A stretch of 60,802 nt of DNA, the filler included, from an uncultured bacterium (GTDB taxonomy: Bacteria; UBP4; UBA4092), in NCBI GenBank assembly GCA_964644695.1. It is 3 parts of 2 records of this genome, joined end to end, with 100 filler letters (N's around TTAATTAATTAA, not from the genome) between each part and the next. Parts side by side here need not be neighbours in the genome. Positions count along the whole stretch, not along the records: positions 26,710 to 48,647 come from CAZXWN010000007.1; 2 more parts are not named here. One strand, written 5' to 3'. A program made the position numbers and the translations under genes. Shown one piece after another: positions 28,725-56,624 of this stretch (within the stretch, counting starts at the first letter, position 1; each line of letters begins with the position of its first letter). The notes below the pieces were generated by a model. It made no database searches and was not told the DNA's origin. It was given only the letters and a program-made list of their open reading frames with translations.

Positions 28725-28800
<76 letters not shown>

Positions 28801-28813
28801 ATCACCAACGTTT

Positions 28814-29866
28814 TCAGATAGTTACATCTATCTTATTATCTATATTTTTAGGGCGGTGTCTATATGGTGTCCATGTACTATCCAGTTTATTAACCGCCTC
28901 TTGAACATGAACCGGGGACAAATGGGAATAACGGATAGTCATTTTAATATCTTTATGTCCCAGTAATTGCTGAACTGTCCGCAAATCTACTCCGCTCATA
29001 ACTAATTGTGATCCAAAGGTATGGCGAAGATCATGGAAATGAAAGTTTTCGATTTCAGCTCTTCTTAAAGCTGAATGAAAAGCTGTTTTTATATCCTTAT
29101 ACGGCATTCCATTACTACCTTCAAAAACATAGGCTCCATGACGTTGTTTATAAAGTTCATTAAGCTCTTGATACAACCTATTATTTATCGGAATAACCCG
29201 TAATTGGTTGTTTTTCGAGTTAATAATTTGAATCTTGCGGTATTCAATATTAACGTTTTCCCACTTTAAACGCAATATCTCGTTTCTTCGCATCCCCGTA
29301 TTTAAAGCCATAACTACAATAGGACGAAGATGCAAAGAACACTTTGAAATTAGTAATTCAGCTTCCCTAGGCTCCAAGTATCTAAGCCTTCCTGGAGGCT
29401 CTTTTAAAAGCTTGATTCCCTTTGTGGGGTTAATTCTTGCATATCCCCATTCTAAAGCCTTTGTATACATATGTTTAAGGCAAGCTAATTCCCGATTAAC
29501 CGTTGCAGGTTGGACGGTGTTAAGTCGCATAACTTTGTATCGCTCAATCATCTGGGGTGTAATTCCACAAAGAAAGTAGCCTTTAAAAAAGGGGGTGAGT
29601 TGGTTCAAGCTGACCTTATCTCGCCGTTCATACATTGAGTGAGACTTGTTGGCCTTAGAGTATTCAAGATATTCTTTTGCATAGTCTTCAAATAATATCT
29701 TCTTTTCATCAGATATGTTCAAGAATTCTCTCTTTGCGATTTTTACTTGGATATCCTTTAGTACTTGGTCAGCCAGTTTTTTGGAAGGACCGATCTTTTT
29801 CCGTTTTCGATGACCTTGAACATAATAGTCAACATACCAGTTAGCACCTTTTTGGTATATACCCAT
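28814..29866 (-). CDS. Tyrosine recombinase / phage-type integrase
   Basis: N-terminal arm-binding WYVDYY; TGMRRNE (R), KNN (K), FHDLRHTF (HxxR), LLGH, TIRYSH (Y); GGAGGTG RBS. Confidence 0.96.
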   Translation of the reverse strand: MGIYQKGANWYVDYYVQGHRKRKKIGPSKKLADQVLKDIQVKIAKREFLNISDEKKILFEDYAKEYLEYSKANKSHSMYERRDKVSLNQLTPFFKGYFLCGITPQMIERYKVMRLNTVQPATVNRELACLKHMYTKALEWGYARINPTKGIKLLKEPPGRLRYLEPREAELLISKCSLHLRPIVVMALNTGMRRNEILRLKWENVNIEYRKIQIINSKNNQLRVIPINNRLYQELNELYKQRHGAYVFEGSNGMPYKDIKTAFHSALRRAEIENFHFHDLRHTFGSQLVMSGVDLRTVQQLLGHKDIKMTIRYSHLSPVHVQEAVNKLDSTWTPYRHRPKNIDNKIDVTI

Positions 29867-37406: not shown

Positions 37407-37417
37407 AAATCCCCCCC

Positions 37418-38752: not shown

Positions 38753-38780
38753 TCGTCTCCTCCTGTTTTATTATGCCCCG

Positions 38781-38810
38781 ATTATAGGAAAACGAAATAC
38801 AAATTGTCAA
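38781..38810 (-). promoter_or_regulatory. Consensus sigma70 promoter of the island's leftward operon
   Basis: Minus strand TTGACA-18 nt-TATAAT, ~28 bp upstream of the TPR gene start. Confidence 0.75.
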
Positions 38811-39029
38811 CATTTATTATTCTCAAAAATTATTCTGTTATCTTAAAATAAACAACAAAATACTTTTACCAACTAAAAACCACATAGACCAACATATTAG
38901 ATAAATAAATCACTGAATAACAGTAAATAAAAATTATTAATTCATTATAATATCCAGAATTTTGAAGTATAATGAGGGGCAAAAGATTAATATAGATACT
39001 TACTATTTGAACGAGAAGGAGATCAAAAG

Positions 39030-40166: not shown

Positions 40167-40341
40167 TGATTTTTATTAGAGTCAATTCAAAGCAATAGCC
40201 TCCACAAATCTGGCATATGGGAAAATGTGAACGGTAATAAAGTTCTTTTTTCATATTAGCAGTTCACATTTTTTAATAATAATCATGTAAATAAAAATCA
40301 GAAGACGAATATTCAATCTTCTGATTTATGACATAGTGTCA

Positions 40342-41325
40342 TTAATTTTGATCATACTGCTTAAACTCATGTACAGGTAGCGTAACCAATCTACCCCCTA
40401 GTCGCTCCATCTCAATACGGTTTTCCCAGACAATCTCACTTTGAGCTGCTCTGGTAATAGCGTTCGCAATCCCATACTGGTCTGCATCCGGTTCTGCTCC
40501 AAAAGCCATAAGGATACTGTCTCTTTGAATTTCTGTAAGCTTGTAATGTTCCACCACATGGTGAATAACTTTCTGGGGATTGGAAATTTTCACTTCCGTA
40601 CTTTCACGTAGGGACTGGGTTATTTCTCCAAACCGACCAAAGAGTTCCGTTATAGATCTCCGGATGGATAGATAGATGGTATCATCGGAATCCTCATGCC
40701 CATTGCCTAGATGGATTTGTCGGGTAAGAAATTCCTCCATGACCATGCCATTGGAACAAAGTACTCGAAAGATTCTGGGCTCTACTTTTAAGGCTTTATG
40801 CCCTGTCTCTGAATTGGTGAGGAGTAATCCTCCCATAATTCGATCATCCCGATGACGGACAAAGTCTCTAAGCTGGTTACTTTTGACTTTGACGTTCATT
40901 TCCGTTTCAGATAGGTAAGTGTCCTCAATCTCGGAATCATGGGCTTGTAGCTCATTTAAAGCACAATAGAGGACATCTAGGTGATCAATAACCCGGTAAC
41001 GGTCACTAAGGAAAGCTCTGACCGAATCTCCCAAACCTCTGACAAACACATCCCGATTGAACTTTCTTAACCAGGTATTAGTGTTTTCAATCAAGAGACT
41101 CGGTTCTTCTTCCCTCATACGGTGATAATACTTCAGAGGGATTTCCAATCGTTCAGCTATCTGGGCATGACAGGATGAAGCAATCTGGTATGACTTTCCA
41201 CCTTCCATGGATAGCTGAGGAGAAGTCCCTTCCATTACCATAGAGATGCTCCCCACAGGTAAAGATTGATCCCACTTCAAAGGTTTTTGACGTTCTAGCT
41301 CCTTCAATAATTCTTGTATATTCAC
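40342..41325 (-). CDS. DUF932/DUF945-family mobile-element protein
   Basis: HAQIAERLEIP..YY, VRAFLSDRYRVIDH, LTNSETG and RVLCSNGM motifs; GTG start with AAGGGGTG RBS (alternative start 41343). Confidence 0.8.
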   Translation of the reverse strand: MNIQELLKELERQKPLKWDQSLPVGSISMVMEGTSPQLSMEGGKSYQIASSCHAQIAERLEIPLKYYHRMREEEPSLLIENTNTWLRKFNRDVFVRGLGDSVRAFLSDRYRVIDHLDVLYCALNELQAHDSEIEDTYLSETEMNVKVKSNQLRDFVRHRDDRIMGGLLLTNSETGHKALKVEPRIFRVLCSNGMVMEEFLTRQIHLGNGHEDSDDTIYLSIRRSITELFGRFGEITQSLRESTEVKISNPQKVIHHVVEHYKLTEIQRDSILMAFGAEPDADQYGIANAITRAAQSEIVWENRIEMERLGGRLVTLPVHEFKQYDQN

Positions 41326-41553
41326 GGTTTTCACCCCTTTCATTTTTAAGTTTTAAAGAGCCATACCACTACTGTAGAGAACTTTCAACGACATGAAAAG
41401 GAGGGTGTTTTTGCCGAGAAAGGCAAATTCAGAAATTAGTATGATATTGAGAGCTGTTAGGCTGTTTCAGCTAAGGTCGGCAATATATCCCCTCTTATCC
41501 GCAGACAAACAAATAGATATTCTAGTAATAGAAGCCTCTATCCAAATCTCCCT

Positions 41554-41727
41554 ATGCTTACTTTGCAACAATGTCGAAAAACAGATCCTCGTCTTCAAAA
41601 GTACTCGGATGAAGAACTAACCCACATTCGGGATGATTTGTATCAATTGGTTCAAATAATCTTCACCATAATCCAGAAAGAGCATAGTTCCAAAAGTCCG
41701 AGTAGGGCCTTGGCAAAATCTGAATAA
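41554..41727 (+). CDS. Small 57-aa protein upstream of the serine recombinase (absent from the ORF track)
   Basis: MLTLQQCRKTDPRLQKYSDEELTHIRDDLYQLVQIIFTIIQKEHSSKSPSRALAKSE; ends 18 bp before the recombinase ATG. Confidence 0.6.
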   Translation: MLTLQQCRKTDPRLQKYSDEELTHIRDDLYQLVQIIFTIIQKEHSSKSPSRALAKSE

Positions 41728-41745
41728 GCCTTAAAATGAGGGCAT

Positions 41746-43434
41746 ATGGATCAAGTCATCTCTAGTAAAACTGGAATTATCTATTGTCGAGTTTCTTCCA
41801 AAGAACAGGTGGAAGGAACCAGTTTAGAGTCCCAAGAAAAGGTTTGCCGGGAATATGCAGAAAAACAGAATATTCAGATTTTAAATATATTTATAGAAAA
41901 GGGAGAATCTGCCAAAACTACCGACCGCGCCCAATTCACCAAGGCGATTGCCATGTGCAGTCACAAAAGACCTAAAGTGGACTATTTCATTGTGTATAAA
42001 CTTGATAGGTTTGCTCGGAATCAGGATGACCATGTGATTGTAAGACAGATGCTTAGTAAATATGGTACCGAGTTGAAATCTGCCACCGAGCCTATCAACA
42101 GCACGCCGGTCGGAAGAGCCATGGAAGGTATGATTTCTGTCTTTGCTGAATTCGACAACAATGTTCGTCGAGAACGTTGTGTTTCTGGAATGAAGGAACG
42201 GGTCAGACAAGGTATTTGGTGTTGGCCGGCACCCTTCGGCTATTACCGCAAGGAACGAGGCGGCAATATAATCCCCAATGATAAAATCTCCCCATATATC
42301 CGGTTGGCCTTTGAGGAATATGCCAGAGGGATCCATACTTATGACTCTTTAGCCAAATATCTATGTGATTTAGGAGTCAGAATGCCTTCAGGACATAGAC
42401 CAGTTAAGCAATTTGTGGAACGTATATTAAAAAACCCGATATATACCGGACACATGGAAGTCTGGGGAGAAAGGTATAAGGGTACGTTTGAGCCGATAAT
42501 TAATGAAGCCTTATTTAGAAAATGCCAGGGCTGTTATCGGCACTCACAAAGCCACCGGATGCCTAGGCTTCAGAAAAACCCATATTTTCCACTCCGGAGA
42601 TTGGTCATCTGTTCACAATGCCATGCGTCCTTAACTGGTAGCATTTCCAAAGGAGGCAGCGGTAATAAATATGCCTATTATCATCACCATCATCAAGGAT
42701 GTCCCTATGCGATGTTTCTGCCAAAACAGATTTTAGAAGATAAGTTCGCAGCTTATCTTAAGGAAATGTCACCAAAAGATGAGTGTGAAAAAGTTTTCCA
42801 AGAAACTGTTCTAGATTTCTGGAAGGGAAATACTAATAGCCTATCAGAAAAACAAAAATCATTGCGCAGGGAAATATCCATACTAGAACAGGACAAGCTA
42901 AAAGCTTTTGAAAGTCATCGCAAAGGTATATATACCGATGATGAATTCATAGTCCAAAAAAGAATCTTAAATTCCCAACTCGAACAAAAACAATCGTTAT
43001 TGGAATCCACTACTATTCCAGAAATTGATATAAAAGAAGCGTTGGAAACATATCTTTACTATGCTCGGAATGCAGCAGAAATATGGAAGAAAGCGGATTA
43101 TCCCATTAAGATGCAATTTCAGAAACTCATCTTTGCTGGTGGAAAAGTAAGTTTTGATGGTGAAAAATTTGGAACGACTAAATATTCGCTTATTTACGGG
43201 GATAATTGGGGGAACCCTGCTGATCATGGTGGATTACCAACTGATGTCGAAGAACAAGCTAGTGGAACAGATAATATGTCCCTTGTTTACGCCATAAATC
43301 AGTCTTTTGCTGGCAATAAATCTGTTTTGGTGGACCACTTTAGACGAAATTGGAATAGATGGGTCAGTGAGATGCGGGAGTGGGCAAAGTTTCATCAATT
43401 CAGGAAAGAATGTGGTAAATCTGAACTAATCTAA
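41746..43434 (+). CDS. Large serine recombinase (resolvase, recombinase, Zn-ribbon and coiled-coil domains)
   Basis: YCRVSSKEQ catalytic Ser, KLDRFARN, APFGY, NPIYTG, CSQC; coiled coil. Confidence 0.95.
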   Translation: MDQVISSKTGIIYCRVSSKEQVEGTSLESQEKVCREYAEKQNIQILNIFIEKGESAKTTDRAQFTKAIAMCSHKRPKVDYFIVYKLDRFARNQDDHVIVRQMLSKYGTELKSATEPINSTPVGRAMEGMISVFAEFDNNVRRERCVSGMKERVRQGIWCWPAPFGYYRKERGGNIIPNDKISPYIRLAFEEYARGIHTYDSLAKYLCDLGVRMPSGHRPVKQFVERILKNPIYTGHMEVWGERYKGTFEPIINEALFRKCQGCYRHSQSHRMPRLQKNPYFPLRRLVICSQCHASLTGSISKGGSGNKYAYYHHHHQGCPYAMFLPKQILEDKFAAYLKEMSPKDECEKVFQETVLDFWKGNTNSLSEKQKSLRREISILEQDKLKAFESHRKGIYTDDEFIVQKRILNSQLEQKQSLLESTTIPEIDIKEALETYLYYARNAAEIWKKADYPIKMQFQKLIFAGGKVSFDGEKFGTTKYSLIYGDNWGNPADHGGLPTDVEEQASGTDNMSLVYAINQSFAGNKSVLVDHFRRNWNRWVSEMREWAKFHQFRKECGKSELI

Positions 43435-43491
43435 ATATATTAGAAAATTGTAAACAGGTAAAGGAGGGCAAAATTGCCATATATGACATTT

Positions 43492-44331
43492 CTAAGATAA
43501 TTTGCTTCGAGATGCTTGTATATCATCATGATGAAAACTGAAGAACCAATTAGGTATTGGAATTCCACCTGATACAATACAATTATATTCGGATACAAGT
43601 CTCATTACTTCTGCTATATCAGGATCATTTTGCTGACAAATTGTTTCAAGACTTTTTTCGATATCAAATAAAGACTGTATATTTCTACTCAGTTTTAGCA
43701 CTAGCCCTGTCAAATCAATTGAAAGCATAACTGGAATAATAAGATATATAGCATTAATTAAAATAATCTGTAAATTAACATTTATATGTGTGATGGGTAG
43801 AATAGATAAAACACATATCAACATCCCAACAGATACAACTAAAATAATAATAAAATAGTTTCTTAGTTTCCTGTATAGACACTTTGTCCAATAGGCTGAT
43901 TCAAATGTCATTTCAGCCAATTTTTTCGGCCCAGGTACCTGCTGAGACTCATAATAACTACTTGAGCGACTTTGCAACGAAAACTTTTTAAGAATCTTAC
44001 TACCTGCTTTATTTTTCCAATCATTAAATTGTGAAACTGCAATAGCCCAATTTAACCCTTCGCTTAACACAGACTGCCGACGCATTGTTTCGGCATCTTC
44101 ATATATAATTTCGAATCTGTATCTCTTATATAGAGATATCGCTAAAACCAAAACAATAGTTATTGATACAGCAGTATCAACCTCTAGCGTTAGTTGTACT
44201 AATGAACAAATTACCCCAATAAATCCAGCTATAATCTCTAAGACTATAGACCATTGCCATAGCGTAGCAGCTTCATTAAAGAGTACTCTTGATAATTGAT
44301 TTAGTTCCGCTCCCTGTTGTTTATTATCCAT
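43492..44331 (-). CDS. CBASS S-4TM family pore-forming effector
   Basis: Two pairs of TM helices, ESAYWTKCLY and PIPNWFF motifs; start overlaps the CD-NTase stop (ATGGATAA). Confidence 0.8.
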   Translation of the reverse strand: MDNKQQGAELNQLSRVLFNEAATLWQWSIVLEIIAGFIGVICSLVQLTLEVDTAVSITIVLVLAISLYKRYRFEIIYEDAETMRRQSVLSEGLNWAIAVSQFNDWKNKAGSKILKKFSLQSRSSSYYESQQVPGPKKLAEMTFESAYWTKCLYRKLRNYFIIILVVSVGMLICVLSILPITHINVNLQIILINAIYLIIPVMLSIDLTGLVLKLSRNIQSLFDIEKSLETICQQNDPDIAEVMRLVSEYNCIVSGGIPIPNWFFSFHHDDIQASRSKLS

Positions 44332-45214
44332 ATGTTGGGAAAAATTCTCCTAACAATTCTTTCCATTTAGCTATTGCTACAGAAGGATCTTTCTCACTGA
44401 CACTGTATGCTTCTTGTGCTATGCTTGCAGCTTTATTAGCCCTATTAACAAATAACTCTCGCTTATTCCCAAGAGAGTTATTATCTAAATATAAATCTAC
44501 TCTATCTCCTGAAATGGGATCATATGTAGGGGAATCTAAATATGTTGGTAACTTTGAAAAGAATATATTCACCATAGAATCGAGAGTATATGTTTGACTA
44601 TAGTTTTTGTAGTTATTTAACAATATGCATTCTATGTGAAATCCCCTGAGCTTTTGAGTGAAATTTCTATTCCACCCTTTAATCATTTTTATGAGGGGGA
44701 CGAAATCGCCATCCATATTCTTATTAATACGAGTAACTTCCTCTGCAAATTTAACGGGGTCTGTTTTAAGCCATTCGCCTCGATATGTATCGGGAATAGT
44801 ATAGTAGCCTTGTTTATAATAAAATGCAGGAATTACATCTAATCGAAACTCTGTTAATTTCATAGTGACACAATTTCTATCGATATGACATGCGGTTTTA
44901 GGATAAGCATCTTGCAATATCTTTTTGAATCGATTTAATGAGTTTGCAACCCCCTCCTTACTATCCCACTCCTTATTATTACCATAATGTAATATAACCA
45001 TCAGATCAACATCACCTTCACTTAAATATTTTGTAAGTGTATCGCGGTCATAAGAACCAATTAATTTAGAAGGCTTATCTGAATATAGTGAAAGCGACTC
45101 TTTTAGTTTTGCTACCACATTAGTATGACAATTTGATACTATTGATTCTTGTCTATCGGTTATATTTAGATTACTCGCAAATTGTTTAAAAGATTCTTTA
45201 ACTGTTGTTGCCAT
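44324..45214 (-). CDS. CBASS cGAS/DncV-like nucleotidyltransferase (CD-NTase, SMODS)
   Basis: LIGSYDRDT, DVDL (DxD), LDVIPAF, WLKTDP, LIKMIKGWN and WKELLGEFFP motifs; AGGAG RBS. Confidence 0.92.
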   Translation of the reverse strand: MATTVKESFKQFASNLNITDRQESIVSNCHTNVVAKLKESLSLYSDKPSKLIGSYDRDTLTKYLSEGDVDLMVILHYGNNKEWDSKEGVANSLNRFKKILQDAYPKTACHIDRNCVTMKLTEFRLDVIPAFYYKQGYYTIPDTYRGEWLKTDPVKFAEEVTRINKNMDGDFVPLIKMIKGWNRNFTQKLRGFHIECILLNNYKNYSQTYTLDSMVNIFFSKLPTYLDSPTYDPISGDRVDLYLDNNSLGNKRELFVNRANKAASIAQEAYSVSEKDPSVAIAKWKELLGEFFPTYG

Positions 45215-45338
45215 AAATATCTCCTGACCTTAATCTTGATTGAATGTTAACAATAAAAAAAATATACCAATTACTTTGTCATTTATTTAACCCATCGTCT
45301 CTATATTGATTAATACTGTCGACATTTGAAAAAATATC

Positions 45339-46598
45339 TTAATCGGTAATGTTAATATTTTGAAATACTCGCACTTGACGTAAAACGAAATATCCTAAAA
45401 TAAAAAATACTAATAATGATAATACGCCTACCCTTTGATTGCCAGATATTGTCGCTATAATTCCGAATAAAATCGGGCCAAACACTGAAGATATCCTGCT
45501 AGAAAATGCATTAAATCCAAAGATCTCAGCTGATTGTGTTTTTTCTATCATCTGTGATAACAATGCTCGAGATATCGCTGGCGTCGAACCAAGGACAGTA
45601 CCTACCAATATTGATAAAATGTAGTAATGACCCTTAGTTTGAGCTGAATAATAACCAATTACAATAAAAATCCATATTACAATAGTCCATAATAAAACTC
45701 GTTTATATCCGAAACGTTCAGCAAGATAACCAAAAATAATAGTGCAAGGAATGGCTACAATTTGAACAATAATGAAGGCGTACATTATTTCATTTAAACT
45801 CATCTTGACAGTCTCGGACGCAAATATAGTAGTAAAGTAAGTCATTGTAGCCAAGCCATCATTTATCAGATAATTACCCAAAAGAAACTTAAATATTTCT
45901 TTATTTTCTCTCCATCTTTTAATTGTCGAAATTACTTGTATAATTCCACCGTATGTAAGATTATGAGTTTTTTTTGACCTTGGACTAATGCGTCCTGCAG
46001 ATTCTTTCAAATAAAAAATAGTAGGTAATGAAAAAAATAAATAATACAACGCAATAAAAACAAAGGCACTTTGATATGTTTTAATAGCTGCAGGTAATTC
46101 AGCATGCTTAATAAGTGGATATAACAATCCTAAGCATATTATTCCACCAAGATATCCAATTCCCCACCCTAAACATGATAGAACAGCTGTATTTTTATTA
46201 TCTTCCACTTCAATAGGCAAGAAAGCATCATACAAAAATAGTGATGCATTGAAAGTAAGCATAGAAAACATGAAAACTAAACTTACCCAGATATGATTAT
46301 TGCTATTTATGAATCCCAACATAGCTGATAAAAAGACTGTAGTGCAAAAACTGATGATTAATAACAATTTTCTCTTTTTTGCCAGGTCTGCAATAGCACC
46401 TAATATAGGAGAAAGAATGCCCATAATGATAATCGGGACAGAAACAGCCAGGCTCCAAGAAATATCCGGTGATAAAAAGCTAATTGCAATAACTTTTCTG
46501 AAATATAAGGGAAACAGTATTGTAGGTATCATTAAATAATAGGCAGAATTAGCAAAATCATATAATACCCACGCAACTTGAGATTTGTTTAATGCCAT
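45339..46598 (-). CDS. MFS transporter, UMF1/Atg22 (YxiO-like) family
   Basis: AWVLYDFANSAY, SPILGAIAD, YDAFLP, GWGIGYLGG, INDGL, ISRALLS and FFILG motifs; 12 TM. Confidence 0.88.
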   Translation of the reverse strand: MALNKSQVAWVLYDFANSAYYLMIPTILFPLYFRKVIAISFLSPDISWSLAVSVPIIIMGILSPILGAIADLAKKRKLLLIISFCTTVFLSAMLGFINSNNHIWVSLVFMFSMLTFNASLFLYDAFLPIEVEDNKNTAVLSCLGWGIGYLGGIICLGLLYPLIKHAELPAAIKTYQSAFVFIALYYLFFSLPTIFYLKESAGRISPRSKKTHNLTYGGIIQVISTIKRWRENKEIFKFLLGNYLINDGLATMTYFTTIFASETVKMSLNEIMYAFIIVQIVAIPCTIIFGYLAERFGYKRVLLWTIVIWIFIVIGYYSAQTKGHYYILSILVGTVLGSTPAISRALLSQMIEKTQSAEIFGFNAFSSRISSVFGPILFGIIATISGNQRVGVLSLLVFFILGYFVLRQVRVFQNINITD

Positions 46599-46608
46599 AT
46601 TATTAAAT

Positions 46609-47235
46609 CTAAACATTGGTAGAAATTGATTTTTCATAAGTTACATTATCTCGCTCAACCCATCCTTCTATGAATAAATATATAAAAACCTGTATTAGAA
46701 ATAGCCCATAAAAAACTCCCTTATATGTATCACTCAATGCAATACTCTGCCACTCGGAAAACCCAATATAACTACAAGACAAATTTAAGTAAAAAAGGAC
46801 TGATGAAAAAACTGAAACAACCGCCAATGAAAACCAACCCCTAAAAAAATTACCTTTATAAATAGAACAAGGAAAGACTAATGCGGTTACAACGGGTATA
46901 AATAAATAATATGAAGAAAAATAACTTTGTAACGCCCCTCCAGTAGATTTAACAAACAGATGAATTGAGAACAATGCAACAATCCCGCCGATCCACAAAC
47001 ATACTCTAGCCATTACTGGTTTTTCTTCATAGGTAAAACTTGCTATTATAAAAATACTAACGATAAAAAGACAAAAGATGCCAAATCTATATGTATTAAT
47101 ACTATCATTGGGTATTATATTAATAATTTTGAATTCATCTAAAAGCCAAAGAATAGTGCTTGGCAGAACCCCACCAAAAGCATAGCAAAGCCATGAAAAT
47201 AGTTTAATTTTTTCCATTATTGTATGCGTCTTCAA
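46609..47235 (-). CDS. Six-TM hypothetical membrane protein
   Basis: AGGAG RBS, TTG start; hydrophobic helices; TGGALQSYFSSYY motif; tightly packed between the synthase and the MFS. Confidence 0.7.
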   Translation of the reverse strand: MKTHTIMEKIKLFSWLCYAFGGVLPSTILWLLDEFKIINIIPNDSINTYRFGIFCLFIVSIFIIASFTYEEKPVMARVCLWIGGIVALFSIHLFVKSTGGALQSYFSSYYLFIPVVTALVFPCSIYKGNFFRGWFSLAVVSVFSSVLFYLNLSCSYIGFSEWQSIALSDTYKGVFYGLFLIQVFIYLFIEGWVERDNVTYEKSISTNV

Positions 47236-47251
47236 TCTTGTTTTTCTCCTG

Positions 47252-48265
47252 TCATTTTAAGTTTTCTAATACATCTTTGTTACGGTTTAACAAACAATAA
47301 ACCAAATCTTCTAAAATAGTCTTCCCACGCAATGAAACATCTGTTAAATCATTTAATTTATTTAACACCTCCTGATTTGCCCGTAATCTTATATCGTTTA
47401 TATTATTTATAATCGACTCCTCACATATGAGATTTCTATACATATCTTTCTGGATTATTGCACTGGTGGCATTAAAGTTATGCTGTTCTGTAATGATGAA
47501 ATTTAAAAAATTTCCAGGATCAATAGGTTGAGCATCATTCTTCATAAATAGAATTATATCTTCTATATCGTCCTCAATTTGATGTGCAACCCCCAACGAT
47601 AGTCCAAAATCATAATACTCACGCGCTTTCTCTTGCGACAGCCTGCTTAGTGAACCAATTTCACATGCAATTCCGAGAAGAACTCCGGTTTTTAAACCAA
47701 CAACTTTATAATAATAATCCAATCCCTCTCTCCAAAGTTGAGACGCATTTAAATCCAACGTCTGACCTTCCCCAATTAAGATAATGCCCTTTATAAGTTT
47801 CTCTAGTACAATCCTATAATAAAAATTCTCTGATTTTTGGTTTAACAATGTTAGCTCTGCGCATGATTTCAAGATCCATGCCACATTGATTGCTTGGCTG
47901 ATCCCACTCTTTTTCCACAAAGAATCTCTGTTGCACCGTGTTTCTGATGCATCTTCTATATCATCAATAATTAACGTGGCGTTATGATATAACTCAATAG
48001 CACATGCTACGGGCATCACACGACTTATATCTACACCTAAGATATCCGCAATTAACAAACATAAATGCCCCCGTAGTCTTTTACTATGTGAAATTACAGA
48101 ATCAGAGGGGGCACTATCTAATCGTAAATGATAAAAAATCTCTTTAATTAAAGAATGCCCGGCAAGACTTGTTTCCAGCAACGATTTTAACTCATTATTA
48201 ATTTTTTGCCGATAAGGTGAATTAATAATTGAGTTCTCTTTTGAAAGTAACGATTTTTCACACAT
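47252..48265 (-). CDS. Divergent polyprenyl synthetase family (class I isoprenoid synthase fold) protein
   Basis: KRLR, IELYHNATLIIDDIED (FARM), GQTLDL, KTG and QIEDDIED (SARM). Confidence 0.88.
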   Translation of the reverse strand: MCEKSLLSKENSIINSPYRQKINNELKSLLETSLAGHSLIKEIFYHLRLDSAPSDSVISHSKRLRGHLCLLIADILGVDISRVMPVACAIELYHNATLIIDDIEDASETRCNRDSLWKKSGISQAINVAWILKSCAELTLLNQKSENFYYRIVLEKLIKGIILIGEGQTLDLNASQLWREGLDYYYKVVGLKTGVLLGIACEIGSLSRLSQEKAREYYDFGLSLGVAHQIEDDIEDIILFMKNDAQPIDPGNFLNFIITEQHNFNATSAIIQKDMYRNLICEESIINNINDIRLRANQEVLNKLNDLTDVSLRGKTILEDLVYCLLNRNKDVLENLK

Positions 48266-48518
48266 ATATTTTTTCTAATTTACTCCTAAACATTCGGTAT
48301 TTTCCAAAATTGATTTGAAATTTATATTTTGGATATTATCATAAATAATTACATAATGCACATCATGCAATGCTACCATCGCTCTATCAATATTAAAAAC
48401 TGTCCAATATTATTACTGTAAGTTATATTTGGAACTCTTTAAAACACAATCCACCAGCACCTGTTTTATTGTAACCCACTTACAATTTTTTGCAATAATC
48501 TGAAATTTCATACACATT

Positions 48519-48545
48519 AAAAAGGGAAGCAGGTTACTGCTTCCC
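48519..48545 (-). terminator. Intrinsic terminator
   Basis: GGGAAGCAG/CTGCTTCCC stem with a minus-strand U tract after the nuclease fragment. Confidence 0.75.
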
Positions 48546-48558
48546 ATGATTCAATCCT

Positions 48559-48647
48559 TTAGTGATTCCACATCGGACAGAGTCTCTGATACTCACACTC
48601 CTTACACATAAATCCCGGTCGTGGAAGAAAAGACTCATTACAAATAG
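48559..48647 (-). CDS. C-terminal end of a RecB/Cas4-like PD-(D/E)XK nuclease (truncated by contig end)
   Basis: Minus strand ICNESFLPRPGFMCKECEYQRLCPMWNH*; FxPxPG..CxxCxYxxxCP Fe-S Cys cluster. Confidence 0.7.
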
Positions 48648-48747
48648 NNNNNNNNNNNNNNNNNNNNNNNNNNNNNNNNNNNNNNNNNNNNTTAATTAAT
48701 TAANNNNNNNNNNNNNNNNNNNNNNNNNNNNNNNNNNNNNNNNNNNN
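48648..48747. other. Artificial contig linker
   Basis: 100 bp of N with a central TTAATTAATTAA. Confidence 0.98.
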
Positions 48748-48795
48748 CGAAGTTATCAATACTAAAACTAACAAACAAAGTAATAGTTTCATCAT
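48748..48795 (-). CDS. N-terminal signal peptide of a gene truncated by the contig end
   Basis: MMKLLLCLLVLVLITS...; TTGACA-17-TAGATT upstream (~48839-48868). Confidence 0.4.
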
Positions 48796-48920
48796 CCTCA
48801 TAGGTTGTTGAATCCCCTTTTTCAGTCGTCATTGTCACCAATCTATACCCTTTATCATAGACTGTCAACAATTGTTTTTAACTCAGGCTACCTAATAGGA
48901 AATATTTCACTAATCCAAGC

Positions 48921-49007
48921 TGTCATTCCTGCGAAAGCAGGAATCCAGAATCTTGATTTAAGACATAAGCCCTTATGGATTCCTGCTTAGGTCATGCAGG
49001 AATGACA
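48921..49007. repeat. GTCATTCC-type composite palindromic element (CGTC-REP/dRS3/RPE-like)
   Basis: TGTCATTCCTGCGAAAGCAGGAATCCA...TGGATTCCTGC-TTAGGTCAT-GCAGGAATGACA: two hairpins in inverted arrangement. Confidence 0.8.
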
Positions 49008-49143
49008 AACCAGGGGAACAGGGTGAATGATTACCCATTAAAATGGTGGTTTATGAACCACTCAGACCTTTAACAAGGCAAATCATCTTCTTAAAAACTT
49101 ATCCTGTTCATCGTTTCCCCTTCGTTTCTGCTTCGTCAGTCAG

Positions 49144-49190
49144 AACGAAGAATCCACGGACTTGGTCCGAGATGGTCCGTGGATGATTCG
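49144..49190. repeat. Intergenic palindromic repeat, copy 5
   Basis: AACGAAGAATCCACGGACTTGGTCCGAGATGGTCCGTGGATGATTCG. Confidence 0.8.
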
Positions 49191-49449
49191 AGAGAAGGAA
49201 ACATACAATTCGGGAATTATGGGAGAAAACTTTTTATTTGAAGTAGTGGCGAAATGAAGGGGTTTTAATAGTTCAAACTGTTTATTATCAGAGTGTTAGA
49301 TGTATTCCCACCCTACCCCCACAGGACCTGCCATCCCTTACCGATGGAAATTTATTTCCTATTGTGTAATTAATATCTTGACATGAAATAGAGAAGAGAT
49401 TTAAGATTCAGGCAGAAACGCATCTTGGGATAAAGTATGGAGGGTCATC

Positions 49450-51483
49450 ATGAAATATGACCGGCAGGAAGAATTAACCCCATTGGGAGATTTTGAGACA
49501 TTACGACCCATTTTGGAAGAGTCGGCCTCGTACATCCGGCGAACCCTGGTAGAAATGATATATCACGCTAATCTGGACGCCCCCCGCCGCGGACATTATG
49601 GTTCATCTTCCTCATCCGTTGAAATAATGTTGACGGAGATAGTCCGGTTGATCAATCCTTACAATGATTTTGTTGCCTGGAAACCCCATGCCAGCCCTGG
49701 AGTCTATGTCCTGTTGTATCTTCTGGGTGAATTAACTCTGGATGACTTGAAGACACTTCGCCAACGGAACAGCCCCTGTCAGGCCTATTTCAATCAATGG
49801 TTGACTCCATTGATTCAAGTCTCTACGGGATGTATGGGATTTCCACTTCCCTTCTGTTGCGGCCGTGCCATGGGAGATAAGATTGAAAACCGTGACCGCC
49901 GGGTTTTTGTCAATCTCGGAGACGCTGAATTTACCATGCCGATGGGTGTCGAAACCATGCGCTTCGGAGAAATCCAACGGCTTCATAATTTCGGAGTGAT
50001 TGTGGATGATAACCGTCAATCCATGTCCGGCCTTACTTCTCATTTAATGGGAGACAGGCCTATCGAAGATTATTTCCGGTTCTTTGGATGGAATACTCTG
50101 GTGACTGATGGACATGATTTGGATCGGTTATGGGAAGCCTTCGCCGACATGGAACGCGAGATGCAAATCAACCGCCGACCTACCGCCCTGGTATGTAAAA
50201 CCAACAAGTGGGAAGGTCTTCCCCACCCGGAATCCATCGGGAATCATGCCCACATGGCCGGGTTTGATGAATCTACTTTACGGGAATATCGAGACAGTCT
50301 GGGAGTGGGGAACAAACCCCTGTTAATTCCACCCTCTTCTGAAATACAGGATTTCTTCAGAGAATTGTCCTCCCTGTTAAAAAAGAAAGCCGACACCCTG
50401 AAAAAGGATTCCAAATCCTTTATCACTCCTCCTATCCCCTCACTGGAACCCGTCACTTCCCGCAGTACTCTGGGAGCGGTCCAGGAATCCTTCAGTCATC
50501 TCCGTGAATCGGGCTTTGCCCGGGACCATATTTTATATGTGGACCCTGATTTAGGTAAGTTCCCCGGACTCCTTCCTAATGTGTCCGGTCCGGATTCTGT
50601 GGAAGGGGAAATGACTTCTCCTAAAAATCCGAAAGGGTTTGTAGTCCGTACTGGATTATCTGACCCCTTTGCTGTCGCCATTGCCGCCGGCCTGGGCCGG
50701 GACAGTCAACGCTATCCCATCATTCCATTGCTGGATGGGTTTGGGCTGCTGATATCAGAATCCCTTCGACAAGGGTCTCTGTCCGCATCTCATTTCATGG
50801 TTTTGGGAATCGAAACAAATGCCTGGGAGGGACTGACTCACCAACCTACCGGTGCCGCCAATACAGCCATCAGAGATTTACCGGACCGCCCCCGTGACAC
50901 ATGGGGAAGTGAATGGGAATATGGTGTTTACCATTATTATCCCTGCCACCCTCGTGAATCAGCCCTGATTTTTGAAGATTGTATTCAGTCCAAGAAACTG
51001 GCCTACCTGAAACTGAACAGCCAGACCGTTCCTTCTCTGGCGGGGACGGATTGGGAACAAGTCAGTGATAAAGATTACCTGAAGGGTGGATATATCGTAG
51101 GACCGGCATGGGAACATCCAGACTTGGTTATTGCAGCTACGGGCCGGGAAGTCTGGACCTCCTGGAAAGCGGTGAATCAGCTCAGAACTTCATACCCAGA
51201 TTTGAAAATACAATTTTCTGTCATCACCCTTTTGAATTTGCCCGTATCTCATCATCCCGAAGACCGGAAGTTATTACAAAGACTGATCCCCAATGGAGCG
51301 GCAGTGTTACGCGTGGCGGGACTTCCCCCGGATGCTTTGGGTACTGCTCGCGGTACTCGTGAAATCACTTTGAGTACCCGGTACCTCACCCAGAGTGAAA
51401 CTCAGGAAGAAGTAGCAACCGACCAGGGTTATTCATTAGAGGATATTCTTAAAGCATCCAGAGAACTACTCGGTACCGTGTAA
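49450..51483 (+). CDS. Divergent transketolase / 2-oxoacid dehydrogenase E1-like ThDP enzyme
   Basis: GHYGSSSS, KPHASP, STGCMG, GDAE...DDN ThDP motif, DGHD, EGLTHQP and VIAATG; GGAGG RBS. Confidence 0.82.
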   Translation: MKYDRQEELTPLGDFETLRPILEESASYIRRTLVEMIYHANLDAPRRGHYGSSSSSVEIMLTEIVRLINPYNDFVAWKPHASPGVYVLLYLLGELTLDDLKTLRQRNSPCQAYFNQWLTPLIQVSTGCMGFPLPFCCGRAMGDKIENRDRRVFVNLGDAEFTMPMGVETMRFGEIQRLHNFGVIVDDNRQSMSGLTSHLMGDRPIEDYFRFFGWNTLVTDGHDLDRLWEAFADMEREMQINRRPTALVCKTNKWEGLPHPESIGNHAHMAGFDESTLREYRDSLGVGNKPLLIPPSSEIQDFFRELSSLLKKKADTLKKDSKSFITPPIPSLEPVTSRSTLGAVQESFSHLRESGFARDHILYVDPDLGKFPGLLPNVSGPDSVEGEMTSPKNPKGFVVRTGLSDPFAVAIAAGLGRDSQRYPIIPLLDGFGLLISESLRQGSLSASHFMVLGIETNAWEGLTHQPTGAANTAIRDLPDRPRDTWGSEWEYGVYHYYPCHPRESALIFEDCIQSKKLAYLKLNSQTVPSLAGTDWEQVSDKDYLKGGYIVGPAWEHPDLVIAATGREVWTSWKAVNQLRTSYPDLKIQFSVITLLNLPVSHHPEDRKLLQRLIPNGAAVLRVAGLPPDALGTARGTREITLSTRYLTQSETQEEVATDQGYSLEDILKASRELLGTV

Positions 51484-51484
51484 A

Positions 51485-53047
51485 TTATCTCTGAGCTGTC
51501 CGCAGGATTTTAGCGAATCCCATCGGTTTGAGGAGGCAACTGGCGGTAGAGACTCCCCCCATTAATGCTCCAGCAATTCCATGGCTGGCAGCATCTACGC
51601 CCGTAATGTATAAATTCTGGATGGGAGATTCCGCCTGTAACCACTTAGCCCGATACCGTTGAGGGGTTCCGGGAATCCCAAAGATATTCCCATTCCGATG
51701 ACCGGTGTAATGTTCCATGGTCAGAGGGGTTGCCAGTTCGTGATACTCTATCAAGTCCGCAAATCCAGGCAGTCGTTTATCGACAAACTTTATCAGAGAT
51801 TTACTGATAGTTTCTTTTAACTTTGAAAAGTCTTCTTCCGTACTGTTTTTCTTCCAATCAATAACTGATCGGTAATCCAATGGGGCCATAATTTCAGCGG
51901 TTGGAGTCCGAGCTGCCGGGTTTTTCAATGACGGAAAAGACAAATAACATAAACAAGGTTTTCCCTCTATTAATTGATTATGTCGGGCATAGATGTCCTC
52001 ATGGTCATAACTATCAAAGAACCAGTGATTTTCTCCCCGAACTTTCAATACAGAGGGTGACTGAGTCAGTCCCAAATACAACTGCACTACAGAAAATCCT
52101 TGGTGCAAAGCTTCCAGTTCATCTCTAAACTCAATGTCCACTTTTTCGGGTAACAATCGAATGTAGGTATTATAGGCTCCTGCGGCAGATACAATGACCG
52201 GAGCAAAGAACTCTTTTTCAACATAACTCCTGCCTTCATGAGCACGCACCCTTACTCCAACGGCTTCCCCTTTTCGTATAATAATTTCACGAGCCTCATG
52301 ATGGAGCAGACATTCTCCCCCTGCCCTCTGGATGACAGGAAGTATTCCTTCCGCAATTTGACCGGCACCTCCAACGGGATAATAGGCACCTTCGAGATAG
52401 TGATACACTACCTGGGCATGGGTAGCAAAAGCACTCTGAGATGGGGGTAATCCATAGGTCCCCCACTGGGAGGCTAAAACGGCTTTTAATTTTTGATTTT
52501 TAAAATGGGAGTTCAGATAATGTTGAGTCGTCTGCAGGGCAAAATCTTCTGTTTTTTGCTCGAAACTTTCCAGATGTTCTTTAACAAAAGAAGGCGTGGA
52601 CTTTAATGACCGATGACAAGCCAACCATCCAGCCACCAGTTTTACATCTTTGAAATATTGGCGAATGGCTCTTGCCTCTGATGGGAATTTATGAAGTAAC
52701 TCCGCCCGATAGACTTTCTCTTTGGCCGGGACCTCAAACGATAAGTCTGGATAAACAAACTTCTCAAAAGGATCAGGTAAGGCAACCCACTCCACCTGGT
52801 CCTCCGTAATATAATCCATTATTTTTCGGAGCGGAGAATCTACTCCCATTTGGCCGACATAGTGAAGACCCACATCCCAACTTCTTCCCCCCGGCCGGAA
52901 ATATGATTGAGAGAATCCACCGACAGCATGGTGTCTTTCAAGAAGCAATACTTTTGAGCCCCTCATTCGGCTCATTAAACCTGCGAAGGCCAAAGCTCCT
53001 ACCCCGGAGCCGATGACGATGATGTCATATCCCTGTGATTTAGTCAT
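51485..53047 (-). CDS. Phytoene desaturase / retinol saturase-like FAD oxidoreductase
   Basis: YDIIVIGSGVGAL, WDVGLHYVG, GAYYPVGG, ATPLTMEHY and NLYITGVD motifs. Confidence 0.88.
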   Translation of the reverse strand: MTKSQGYDIIVIGSGVGALAFAGLMSRMRGSKVLLLERHHAVGGFSQSYFRPGGRSWDVGLHYVGQMGVDSPLRKIMDYITEDQVEWVALPDPFEKFVYPDLSFEVPAKEKVYRAELLHKFPSEARAIRQYFKDVKLVAGWLACHRSLKSTPSFVKEHLESFEQKTEDFALQTTQHYLNSHFKNQKLKAVLASQWGTYGLPPSQSAFATHAQVVYHYLEGAYYPVGGAGQIAEGILPVIQRAGGECLLHHEAREIIIRKGEAVGVRVRAHEGRSYVEKEFFAPVIVSAAGAYNTYIRLLPEKVDIEFRDELEALHQGFSVVQLYLGLTQSPSVLKVRGENHWFFDSYDHEDIYARHNQLIEGKPCLCYLSFPSLKNPAARTPTAEIMAPLDYRSVIDWKKNSTEEDFSKLKETISKSLIKFVDKRLPGFADLIEYHELATPLTMEHYTGHRNGNIFGIPGTPQRYRAKWLQAESPIQNLYITGVDAASHGIAGALMGGVSTASCLLKPMGFAKILRTAQR

Positions 53048-53146
53048 GCTCGCACATCCGATACCTCGTTCTTTTTTCATGCTAGCACGATTCAATTCTA
53101 TCAGGTTAGGAATTTATTCCGAGTTATCCAGTTTTGATTATCAATG

Positions 53147-53177
53147 AAAAAGGCGGAAATCCCTGAGGATTTCCGCC
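53147..53177 (-). terminator. Intrinsic terminator
   Basis: GGCGGAAATCC/GGATTTCCGCC stem with a U tract. Confidence 0.8.
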
Positions 53178-53198
53178 CTGGTAACAATCTGACTTGGT

Positions 53199-56066: not shown

Positions 56067-56138
56067 AACAATTCACCTTTTCCCTAAAATACAAAATATT
56101 CATTATTCTAATGGATTATGGTTGATATGTGGAGTGTC

Positions 56139-56624
56139 TTAATGGGATGAATATAATCGGCAGGCCAATTCAGCCATCCGCCGAGCATAATTCCGGCAAC
56201 AATTCAAGGACCTTTCATCCGGGGTCTTAATTCCCACAGGCCCATAATGGTCACCCTGATGCATCCCCAGAACCACCATTCCATGAATCAACCAGGCATG
56301 ATGAATATTGAGAAGCGTTGTTTCATTCCCGCCGCCAATATTGGCAGAACTGGTAAAAGCGCCTCCCAGTTTTCCAGCCAGTTCCCCATGATATTTCACA
56401 GAATCATCAATCAACTTCTTACATTCCCAGGGCATACTGCCATAATAAGTCGGAGCACCCATTATCAAAACATCGTAATTTTTCAATTCAGAAGGCTCTA
56501 CTTCCACCACAGGTTTCAAATCCACTTCAATCCCGGAAACTTGCTTCATACTTTCGGAAATTTCCTGGGCCATCACCTGGGTATTACCCGTCCGGGTATA
56601 GTACATTACCAATACTTTCGGCAT
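56139..56624 (-). CDS. Flavodoxin / WrbA-like NAD(P)H-dependent oxidoreductase
   Basis: YYTRTGNT, GAPTYYGSM and GKLGGAFTSSANIGGGNET motifs; GAGGA RBS. Confidence 0.9.
   Translation of the reverse strand: MPKVLVMYYTRTGNTQVMAQEISESMKQVSGIEVDLKPVVEVEPSELKNYDVLIMGAPTYYGSMPWECKKLIDDSVKYHGELAGKLGGAFTSSANIGGGNETTLLNIHHAWLIHGMVVLGMHQGDHYGPVGIKTPDERSLNCCRNYARRMAELACRLYSSH

Follow-up and report, generated by a model that had tools for sequence, protein, structure and literature searches.

A mobile three-gene cassette combining a divergent prenyl diphosphate synthase, a six-helix membrane protein and an Atg22/UMF1-type transporter: a candidate prenyl-lipid operon

Genes, spacing and composition of the cassette

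The window, the whole 60,802-nt stretch of DNA analysed here, contains three co-oriented minus-strand genes that span 48265 to 45339 and are followed, 124 nt downstream, by a type I CBASS. The three genes (the trio) and the elements preceding them are:

47252..48265, minus strand: synthase gene, encoding a divergent trans-prenyl diphosphate synthase of 337 aa; first in the cassette
46609..47235, minus strand: gene for a protein with six transmembrane helices (6TM), 208 aa; TTG start
45339..46598, minus strand: gene for an Atg22/UMF1-type MFS transporter, 419 aa from the ATG at 46598
48266..48523, minus strand: AT-rich leader of 258 nt that runs from the terminator to the start codon (ATG) of the synthase gene; putative promoter region for the cassette
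48524..48545, minus strand: intrinsic-terminator-like hairpin (9 pairs, 6 GC, T-run) that ends the preceding gene and bounds the cassette on its 5' side

The synthase and 6TM genes are separated by 16 nt if the TTG at 47235, which has an AGGAG 10 nt 5' of it, is the start. The gap between the 6TM and MFS genes is 10 nt if the ATG at 46598 is the start, a choice backed by alignment with the homolog on the metagenome contig L082, in which both proteins begin at the same residue. Such spacing suggests co-translation of the three genes. The distance from the MFS stop (45339) to the start of the CBASS CD-NTase gene (45214) is 124 nt. GC content in 1-kb windows reaches its minimum for the whole window (0.30-0.33) at 45 to 49 kb, and the cassette has 32.5% GC vs 42.1% for the genome. 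The co-orientation, both gaps, the distance to the CD-NTase and the AT-richness, together with the two DDxxD motifs, the TRCN sequence and the missing GK of the synthase, had been reported in an earlier note on this DNA and are confirmed here.

The hairpin lies 259 nt 5' of the synthase gene and argues for a cassette transcribed as its own unit. The 258-nt leader has no match in Rfam and contains no riboswitch; it folds no better than its shuffles (z 0.67), with no unusual structure.

The cassette lies in a tRNA-Thr island

The window is a concatenate, and the apparent right flank of the cassette belongs to another contig. The end of the cassette's own contig (C7) and the start of contig C8 overlap by 55 identical nt. 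When the two are joined, the true upstream neighbour of the cassette is a 258-aa Cas4-like nuclease (PF12705, 2.4e-26) whose gene starts on C8. The true context of the cassette is a tRNA-Thr island of 35.4 kb, with 35.9% GC vs 42.1% for the genome. The features that define this context are:

26610-26709: second artificial linker
28725..28801, minus strand: tRNA-Thr(CGT) with the 39-nt left attachment repeat at 28763-28801 (ARAGORN)
28814..29866, minus strand: tyrosine integrase of the island (PF00589, 9.6e-36)
41746..43434, plus strand: large serine recombinase within the island (PF00239, 3.5e-33; PF07508, 2e-11)
43492..44331, minus strand: CBASS 4TM effector, a neighbour of the cassette (PADLOC Effector 4TM PDLC00724, 1e-20)
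44324..45214, minus strand: CBASS CD-NTase, a neighbour and not a member of the cassette (PADLOC Cyclase PDLC00823, 7.5e-66; PF18144, 3.1e-25)
48559..48647, minus strand: 3' end of the PD-(D/E)XK (Cas4-like) nuclease gene, whose stop codon starts at 48559
48648..48747, no strand: artificial contig linker of 100 nt (44 N + TTAATTAATTAA + 44 N)

An identical copy of the 39-nt repeat is found at G000:C8:15647-15685. The island also carries a bSEFIR-like TIR-ATPase (9.4e-15) and Olokun-like OloA/OloB (about 1e-15), and Shango SngB/SngC (5.3e-182 and 9.3e-255) are encoded just outside it. The type I CBASS adjoins the trio, is co-oriented with it and has nearly the same composition (32.8% vs 32.5% GC), but it is a complete two-gene system by itself and has no sequence relationship to the trio.

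A divergent synthase that retains its metal-binding motifs

The synthase matches PF00348 well above the cut-off (1.8e-34; 119.5 bits, cut-off 27), over profile positions 7-192 of 251 only. Its AF2 model (pLDDT 89.6, pTM 0.90) is confident through the C-terminal third, and Foldseek matches the model over its full length to GGPP and long-chain synthases (TMq 0.73-0.75), with alignments to solved synthases of 330-350 columns at E about 1e-10. The protein is thus predicted to have the all-helical trans-prenyl synthase fold over its full length. None of the NCBIfam equivalogs (GGPP, FPP, octaprenyl and others) is reached, the best being NF041169 (111.8 bits vs a cut-off of 450); GGPP_syn scores 87.5 bits vs a cut-off of 500. 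Identity as an encapsulin cargo prenyl transferase was considered and rejected, with an NCBIfam score far under the cut-off.

Archaeal-type (type I) GGPP synthases give the best sequence matches among solved structures (PDB 1WY0, 6KD7, 5JFQ; 2.5e-26 to 5e-25) as well as the best fold matches (TMq 0.69-0.75). As in these enzymes, the cassette synthase has a FARM without insertion and two DDxxD motifs, and keeps the K and R of the GKxxR type, the H, the KT and the Q. The first DDxxD is D101-D102-I-E-D105 and the second D232-D233-I-E-D236; D101, D102, D105, D232 and D233 do not vary among 38 aligned sequences, nor does D236 in the alignment of the 7 family members. These five aspartates and K62, R65, H94, R110, K192, T193 and Q229 form the invariant or nearly invariant set, in which we take the conserved K, R and H positions to be IPP-binding.

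Several features set the cassette family apart from type I GGPP synthases: the residue at -5 relative to the first motif is Ala instead of aromatic, R-R-G after that motif is replaced by R-C-(G/N/D)-R, F-Q before the second motif becomes H-Q, and the GK..G.D..GK that would follow it is missing. In the cassette synthase, the sequence at the relatives' RRG position is TRCN (R-C-N-R). R-C for R-R, the missing GK and H-Q for F-Q are each found in all eight family rows, the window included; outside the family, R-R is retained in 28 of 32 rows and GK in 23. In ordinary synthases, the R-R-G that follows the first motif and the G-K that follows the second supply basic residues at the allylic diphosphate. 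With these positions altered, the enzyme may do something other than simply elongate a chain. The replacements would also suit a synthase-like protein that does not elongate but senses or hydrolyses diphosphates, prenyl or other, and in this way controls the membrane pair, as R-C, H-Q and the lost GK fall at the usual allylic diphosphate contacts. However, both Mg-binding DDxxD motifs and the K, R and H are invariant in the 7-member alignment, which is the pattern of an active catalyst, and we regard this explanation as highly improbable.

The residues before the first motif bear on chain length. Position -5 is Ala and position -4 Thr or Ser in 8/8 family rows, a combination also present in the long-chain paralog of the host and in a JGI-named octaprenyl synthase group. 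The sister group, named GGPPS type I, has Phe at -5 in four of its five rows. Because Ala occupies the position at which C20 enzymes carry an aromatic residue, the product is probably a chain longer than C20. Small residues at -5/-4 (A-T or A-S) are likewise a feature of long-chain trans-polyprenyl synthases (IspB/HepT type), whose fold scores against the cassette synthase are similar (3MZV, TMq 0.75; 9KP1, TMq 0.73). These enzymes serve quinone synthesis and are encoded by chromosomal core genes. They keep R-R, F-Q and GK, and group apart from the cassette family in a quick tree.

The cassette synthase belongs to a very small family, with six relatives among 5.8 billion proteins and a clade of seven clusters. 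In the quick tree this clade is separate and long-branched (SH-aLRT 96). No member of the clade was found in a scan of genome contigs from 185,579 species, a collection that may exclude the host's own genome; the best match was 35% identical over residues 61-238. A scan of viral contigs with the synthase family returned no relative. The host genome (98.7% complete) encodes two other paralogs, one grouping with long-chain and one with short-chain synthases, so the cassette synthase is a third copy alongside two ordinary ones. The earlier view that it is not a housekeeping enzyme is borne out by these paralogs, by its own clade and by its location in a low-GC integrative island. Unlike type I GGPP synthases, it is a mobile-island gene with two membrane partners.

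The six-helix protein founds an undescribed family

The 6TM protein matches no family in Pfam, NCBIfam or PADLOC. A word-indexed search returned the protein alone, and a protein atlas search gave unnamed clusters only, with scores <0.9. An exhaustive profile search recovers 59 representatives at E<=1e-3, with about 57 clusters plausible. The protein is the founder of an undescribed family. Its invariant or nearly invariant columns are G93, G94 and S98, with M1, G15, P19, V89, P108 and Q176. This set contains no acidic residue, and a role as a membrane terpene cyclase or UbiA-type enzyme was rejected.

The AF2 model of the 6TM protein (pLDDT 89.5) finds nothing in the PDB by Foldseek at E<=0.001. 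VIA aligns it to the six-helix domains of AC5, AC9 and ImcA with Z of 11.3, 11.0 and 10.9 (rmsd 3.0-3.4 over 165-170 of 202 residues), values that for a helical bundle can reflect a common arrangement, as they lie under about 13; the rows that follow have Z <=9 and rmsd >5. At this level (Z <13 for a helical bundle), the model is similar to the membrane domains, likewise of six helices, found in nucleotide cyclases. The likeness to PilS-like, cyclase and ImcA sensor domains consists, in the model, of six long helices in the same arrangement, and the 6TM protein and the PilS-like/cyclase domains have in common a G-G-x-x-S-x-F..Y-L-Y stretch where the chain turns from helix 3 into helix 4.

Profile comparisons reach the same domains at low scores. 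The window protein has no match to PF25323 (PilS-like 6TM) at E<=1, and its L082 ortholog scores 17.6 bits (0.0033), below the gathering cut-off of 27 bits. Sub-threshold matches occur in 3 of 45 family members (best 6.1e-4). One GGDEF protein, whose N-terminus matches PF25323 at 6.5e-6, matches the 6TM profile at 4.8e-6, and hhalign of the 6TM family against the PilS-like N-terminus of a GGDEF protein gives a probability of only 39%. Unlike the sensor domains, members of the 6TM family have no cytoplasmic output domain and stand alone or are fused to a transporter. Cyclase six-helix membrane domains have been reported as lipid receptors (PMC4821796, PMC11606603, PMC12505454). The earlier description of the 6TM protein as receptor-like fits the fold match to these domains (Z 10.9-11.3, <13).

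The transporter is genetically linked to the six-helix protein

The MFS protein matches the Atg22-like family PF11700 over positions 76-473 of the 482-position profile (3.6e-48; 164.9 bits, cut-off 24.1) and PF07690 at 3.5e-20. Ordinary Atg22/UMF1 members stand alone, whereas in the sub-branch of the cassette MFS the transporter comes after a prenyl synthase and has an additional six-helix domain, either as a separate partner or fused to it. A yeast Atg22 member reportedly exports amino acids. We know of no bacterial Atg22/UMF1 member with a known substrate, and a literature search on such substrates found nothing; nor, to our knowledge, has any UMF1/Atg22-type MFS been found to move lipids.

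Two relatives are natural fusions in which a 6TM domain precedes the MFS: P0073 (627 aa, 6TM domain at residues 15-191) and P0088 (632 aa, residues 22-212). In addition, for the 6TM protein P0070 and the MFS protein P0130 (60% identical), the reported source is in each case a 3264-nt contig. Fifteen further MFS loci (L147-L161, eight of them with long open frames) were scanned for a 6TM domain hidden at the N-terminus, and none matched even at E<=10. The linkage is plain in the genes, the pair being conserved and encoded as one polypeptide in the same order in two relatives. Since two family members are fused N-terminally to an Atg22/UMF1-type MFS, the 6TM protein and the transporter appear to work together, and we infer physical contact between them.

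The trio recurs outside the host

The same three genes occur in the same order (synthase, 6TM, MFS) on one unrelated metagenome contig, L082, with identities to the window proteins of 42%, 35% and 60% (the last over 417 aa). Complete synteny was seen only in these two places: when the ORFs of 142 loci (138 around prenyl-synthase relatives and four from the genome search) were searched with the 6TM profile, matches were confined to L082 and the window's own locus. This recurrence is more than chance. The earlier proposal that the three genes form a unit is upheld by the order kept in L082 and by the natural 6TM-MFS fusions.

The association with CBASS fared differently. The CD-NTase adjoins the trio in one of the two contexts and is absent from the 10.5 kb around the L082 trio, so the CBASS link suggested by the window is not conserved. 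The L082 trio instead adjoins a TIR gene, encoding a TIR_2 protein (2.9e-14) 700 nt downstream, and mobile-element genes flank all three synthase contexts.

The synthase could in principle be a hitch-hiking extra GGPP/FPP synthase beside a 6TM-MFS transporter for an unrelated solute (an amino acid, Atg22-like). UMF1/Atg22-type transporters often occur where the other two genes do not (they are present in 136 of the 401 genomes sampled, vs one of 401 with a stand-alone 6TM protein), and the fusions unite the 6TM and MFS parts only, never the synthase. Against this, the synthase clade equals the close 6TM and MFS clades in rarity; the position, orientation and short spacing of the synthase gene are kept in two unrelated contexts; and the 16-nt and 10-nt gaps suggest that it is translated with its partners. 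We consider hitch-hiking very unlikely.

A possible role in defence

An anti-phage or signalling role is possible, and the evidence for it is the gene neighbourhood in two defence-rich contexts. If the trio were a new system against phages or mobile elements, its lipid or its membrane machine might block adsorption, DNA entry or assembly, or trigger abortive infection. Defence genes abound in both informative contexts: the island in the window has the type I CBASS, the Cas4-like nuclease directly upstream and the bSEFIR-like and Olokun-like genes, with the Shango genes just beyond its edge, and L082 has the TIR_2 gene close by. The mobile-element genes around all three synthase contexts are in keeping with such a role. 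However, only two contexts are available, both in mobile DNA, where many kinds of cargo accumulate. PADLOC-DB 2.0.0 (5027 models) matches none of the three window proteins (E<=0.01) and none of the three L082 orthologs (E<=0.001). The synthase family is extremely rare, at seven clusters among 5.8 billion proteins, and the trio lacks a nuclease, NTPase, protease or other usual sensor or effector domain. A literature search found no paper combining 'polyprenyl synthetase' with 'defense island'. On balance, we judge a defence function unlikely.

A more specific form, in which the trio would be bacterial immunity of an entirely new category, borne by defence islands, is a long shot. Here, a receptor-like six-helix/MFS machine would place a long prenyl lipid, the product of the dedicated synthase, in the outer leaflet or envelope, blocking phage DNA entry or receptor use, or the lipid would itself serve as a membrane-borne alarm signal. 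We know of no described defence system that uses lipid-based phage exclusion, and a literature search for this principle found none. As the trio sits in two defence-rich mobile contexts, it is a candidate for such exclusion that would be cheap to test.

Proposed function

Our preferred reading, held tentatively and at somewhat less than an even chance, is that the trio is a self-contained mobile operon that makes and translocates a prenyl lipid independently of CBASS. The soluble synthase would condense IPP with an allylic primer, as its motifs and model suggest. The six-helix protein and the Atg22/UMF1-type MFS would form one membrane machine, in which the six-helix part, by analogy with the cyclase domains, may be a lipid-binding or gating module. 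The MFS would then carry the lipid, as prenyl phosphate, prenol or a derivative, across the inner membrane to its outer face, by flipping or export. For the host, the pay-off would most likely be an altered cell envelope, in which phage exclusion could speculatively be included.

Against this reading, the cassette has no phosphatase, prenyltransferase or cyclase. With neither of the last two nor any tailoring gene present, the unusual terpenoid product suggested earlier is not indicated. A related possibility is that the trio is a small biosynthetic cluster whose product, a signal or an antibiotic, is a terpenoid able to diffuse; the MFS would export it, and the six-helix protein would provide immunity or play an accessory part. 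In favour are the mobile, accessory nature of the cassette and the frequency with which natural-product clusters combine a synthase with an MFS. Yet in neither the window nor L082 does the conserved unit include a terpene cyclase, a P450, a methyltransferase or any other gene for tailoring. A prenyl diphosphate by itself does not diffuse, and Ala at -5 suggests a long chain bound to the membrane; a terpenoid cluster is distinctly improbable.

If the prenyl-lipid reading is true, the trio would be a compact mobile operon dedicated to producing and transporting such a lipid. Through it, the bacterial Atg22/UMF1 transporters, present in roughly one third of the genomes sampled, would gain their first functional handle. 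It would also define a new protein family whose six-helix domain, of sensor type, works with a transporter instead of a kinase or cyclase.

Organization and true neighbourhood of the cassette

The cassette consists of three ORFs arranged head to tail:

48265..47252, minus strand: prenyl synthase, 337 aa (PF00348, 1.8e-34)
47235..46609, minus strand: six-helix (6TM) protein, 208 aa, without a Pfam, NCBIfam or PADLOC family
46598..45339, minus strand: Atg22/UMF1-type MFS protein, 419 aa (PF11700, 3.6e-48)

The tight, co-oriented packing with 16- and 10-nt gaps described in an earlier note is borne out by these coordinates. The first gap requires a TTG start of the 6TM gene at 47235, with AGGAG 10 nt ahead of it, and the second requires the MFS ATG at 46598, where the closest MFS homolog also starts. 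The AT-richness reported for this region holds as well, the GC content of 0.30-0.33 in the 45-49 kb windows being the lowest of the whole window. The synthase covers only positions 7-192 of the 251 in the PF00348 profile. A Cas4-like PD-(D/E)XK nuclease gene, ending at 48559, lies directly upstream of the synthase; since a strong hairpin terminator (48545-48524) separates the two, the trio has its own 258-nt leader, in which an Rfam search and folding revealed neither an Rfam match nor unusual structure.

Genome mapping assigns window positions 1-26609 to C7:1-26609 (C7, CAZXWN010000007.1), 26710-48647 to C7:90610-112547, the end of this 112.5-kb contig, and 48748-60802 to contig C25 (CAZXWN010000025.1; C25:1-12055). 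Two 100-nt linkers (26610-26709 and 48648-48747) join the pieces, each made of 44 N, TTAATTAATTAA and 44 N, the central element presumably being a six-frame-stop spacer for joining contigs. The stitching leaves out 64 kb of C7, and adjacency across the linkers is artificial; because the right-hand piece is C25, the cassette and the transketolase-like gene on its right are not true neighbours. C7 ends with 55 nt that reappear unchanged as the start of C8, a further contig of the same genome, and a public contig from sequencing run X1 extends 482 nt past window position 48640; C7 probably runs on into C8. Public runs labelled as sludge or activated-sludge metagenomes contain DNA near-identical to window 39000-48640: run X1 contains 99% of the sampled words of this interval and may be its origin, X2 belongs to the same study, and X3, which comes from a second study, has short stretches (90-100% identity) that cover the CBASS effector and the MFS gene in part.

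The cassette lies in an integrative island

Direct repeats of 39 nt, a tRNA-Thr(CGT) gene and an integrase together define an integrative island of ~35.4 kb, spanning window 28725-48647 and positions 1-15685 of locus L145 on C8 (G000:C8). The repeat, which duplicates the 5' half of the tRNA gene, occurs at window 28763-28801 and C8:15647-15685, and the tyrosine integrase adjoins the tRNA gene. GC content is 35.9% in the island vs 42.1% in the genome. Besides the CBASS, the trio and the Cas4-like nuclease gene, the island contains genes for a large serine recombinase and a DUF932 protein, and the following:

Window 29915-33277 and L145 1199-2572: two TraD/HerA-like ATPases (PADLOC mad8, 1.1e-23 and 8.5e-19)
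Window 39030-40166: Zn-dependent phospholipase C-domain protein, 378 aa (PF00882, 7e-12)
L145 5347-7650: bSEFIR-like TIR-ATPase (9.4e-15)
L145 9326-13359: Olokun-like OloA/OloB pair (2.7e-15 and 1.1e-14, weak)

Shango SngC/SngB (L145 15805-19369; 9.3e-255 and 5.3e-182) are encoded just past the right attachment repeat, outside the island. The larger ATPase (1120 aa) carries a C-terminal HTH_17 domain; the two ATPases may act either in island transfer or in defence. Five co-oriented genes at 33282-38752 (183, 364, 321, 490 and 444 aa) are almost without family matches, the sole ones being a sub-threshold HEAT hit and, in the last gene, TPR repeats, and may form an unknown island module. The phospholipase C-domain protein sits between this run and the DUF932 protein.

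The synthase forms a rare, distinct family

Among 5.8 billion clustered proteins, six relatives of the synthase were found at 40-53% identity (E 2.4e-79 to 6.9e-65), followed by one outlier at 7e-29 and by ordinary synthases at 3.4e-24 or weaker. No clade member was found in a one-genome-per-species set covering 185,579 species (35% identity at best, residues 61-238), in IMG/VR, or in 30 other genomes, which include four from the window's family or class (best 1.8e-19). Sampling of the host lineage is thin, its relatives comprising two same-family and two same-class genomes, with 'same domain' as the next step. In a quick maximum-likelihood tree (62 rows, SH-aLRT support only), the seven members of the family group together (support 96) at the end of a long stem; their sister is the outlier P0008, and the next sister is a group named GGPPS type I by JGI. 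Two further synthase paralogs in the host genome (98.7% complete) group with long-chain and short-chain synthases. This placement agrees with the proposal that the synthase is not a housekeeping FPP/GGPP synthase.

Motifs were tabulated for 40 aligned rows, the family and P0008 (8 rows) against 32 others. Lys and Arg of the first conserved motif are retained in 8/8 family rows, and so are the His, KT and both DDxxD motifs; 8/8 also have Ala at -5 before the first DDxxD. All eight rows carry R-C at a site that reads R-R in 28/32 others, and H-Q where 32/32 others have F-Q; the G-K after the second DDxxD, found in 23/32 others, occurs in 0/8. The table confirms that both DDxxD motifs are kept, that TRCN stands in place of RRG and that the GK segment is missing, and these are traits of the family. 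AF2 gives a model of high confidence from end to end (pLDDT 89.6, pTM 0.90), which aligns along its entire length with GGPP and long-chain synthases of known structure (TMq 0.73-0.75), so the divergent C-terminal third keeps the fold.

In mutagenesis of archaeal GGPP synthases, an aromatic residue at -5 reportedly halts elongation at C20, and small residues there give longer chains. From this rule and the A-T/S pattern before the first DDxxD, which is the same in the host's long-chain paralog, we infer a product longer than C20. The altered basic residues of the diphosphate site, along with the absence of a prenyl diphosphate-processing enzyme, could indicate a different chemistry.

An undescribed membrane-protein family paired with an MFS protein

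The cassette contains an undescribed membrane-protein family. A word-indexed search with the 6TM protein gave no match besides itself. The three genes recur in identical order on L082, an unrelated metagenome contig (synthase 3428-4492; 6TM 4565-5170; MFS 5217-6473), with 42%, 35% (E 2e-20) and 60% identity to the window's synthase, 6TM and MFS proteins, respectively. A profile built from the two 6TM proteins (window and L082) matches 59 of 1.84 billion representatives at E<=1e-3; 17 of them reach <=1e-10 and 3 reach <=1e-30. The majority are stand-alone proteins of ~200 aa, and the common motif L-H-x-x-V-x-x-T-G-G-x-x-Q/x-S-x-F-x-x-x-Y-L-Y-I-P lies in the turn between helices 3 and 4. Two of the 59, long repeat proteins, are probably spurious.

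The best argument for joint action of the second and third genes comes from the database proteins P0073 and P0088, single polypeptides in which an N-terminal 6TM domain is followed by an Atg22-type MFS, matching the window gene order. P0070 (6TM) and P0130 (MFS, 60% identical to the window's) are each reported from a contig of 3264 nt and are probably a third 6TM-MFS pair. Atg22-type MFS genes occur in 136/401 sampled genomes at E<=1e-20; in that set the 6TM profile finds nothing beyond the window's own genome and, at its N-terminus, a single GGDEF protein. A 6TM gene is found at only L082 and the cassette's own locus among 142 loci (138 around prenyl-synthase relatives and 4 from genome searches), and 0/15 other MFS loci examined conceal a 6TM domain. 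The 6TM-MFS pair is set apart from ordinary Atg22-type MFS genes by this distribution.

Structurally, the 6TM protein is modelled by AF2 as six long helices and one short one (pLDDT 89.5, pTM 0.84), for which Foldseek returned nothing significant. An exhaustive VIA structure search, in which by the tool's own warning Z under ~13 is not decisive for helical bundles, ranked first the membrane domains of human adenylyl cyclase 5 (8SL3; Z 11.3, rmsd 3.0 Å, 165 residues aligned) and adenylyl cyclase 9 (6R3Q; Z 11.0, 3.1 Å, 167 residues), then diguanylate cyclase ImcA (8WCN; Z 10.9, 3.4 Å, 170 residues); later rows, designed helical repeats, do not exceed Z 9 and have rmsd values over 5. The PilS-like 6TM family PF25323 matches the L082 ortholog at 0.0033 and, weakly, 3/45 family members. 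The 6TM profile matches the GGDEF protein at 4.8e-6, and the N-terminus of that protein scores 6.5e-6 against PF25323; hhalign of the 6TM family with this N-terminus gives only 39% probability. These sequence links point, weakly, in the same direction as the fold likeness to cyclase membrane domains. The GGDEF protein, a diguanylate cyclase at L144 (G302:C1) 337-2073, has an N-terminal PilS-like 6TM domain at 26.4 bits vs a cut-off of 27, and shares a G-G-x-x-S-P-F..Y-Y-Y stretch with the cassette family. Six-helix cyclase anchors are reported as lipid receptors in three papers (PMC4821796, PMC11606603, PMC12505454). The nearly invariant 6TM residues are G, G, S, P and Q, and a conserved acidic residue is absent, a pattern more in keeping with ligand binding or helix packing than with a catalytic role.

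Defence neighbourhood and function

Anti-phage function was proposed from the position of the trio 124 nt upstream of a type I CBASS. That position is real, with PADLOC matches to the CD-NTase (7.5e-66) and the 4TM effector (1e-20), but the arrangement is not conserved: no CD-NTase lies in the 10.5 kb covered around the L082 trio. Ahead of the trio there, a DruA-domain protein overlaps an IS66-type transposase, and 700 nt past the trio lies a TIR_2 protein that has a promoter-like site of its own. On L081, another contig, the synthase relative follows an rve-type transposase, and the contig stops 55 nt beyond the gene. Both informative contexts, the window and L082, are defence-rich mobile DNA, and a defence role is a lead from these two neighbourhoods, not a demonstration. 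PADLOC models match none of the three window proteins or their three L082 orthologs, and a limited set of papers yielded no described system of this kind. Anti-phage function is an unlikely role for the cassette, and its fully novel version, a lipid-based immunity, is more doubtful still.

In sum, this is a genuine and conserved cassette, mobile and very rare. The best-supported mechanism, put forward tentatively at somewhat under even odds, is that the module would make and move a prenyl lipid, and that the six-helix protein would bind this lipid as the partner of the MFS protein.
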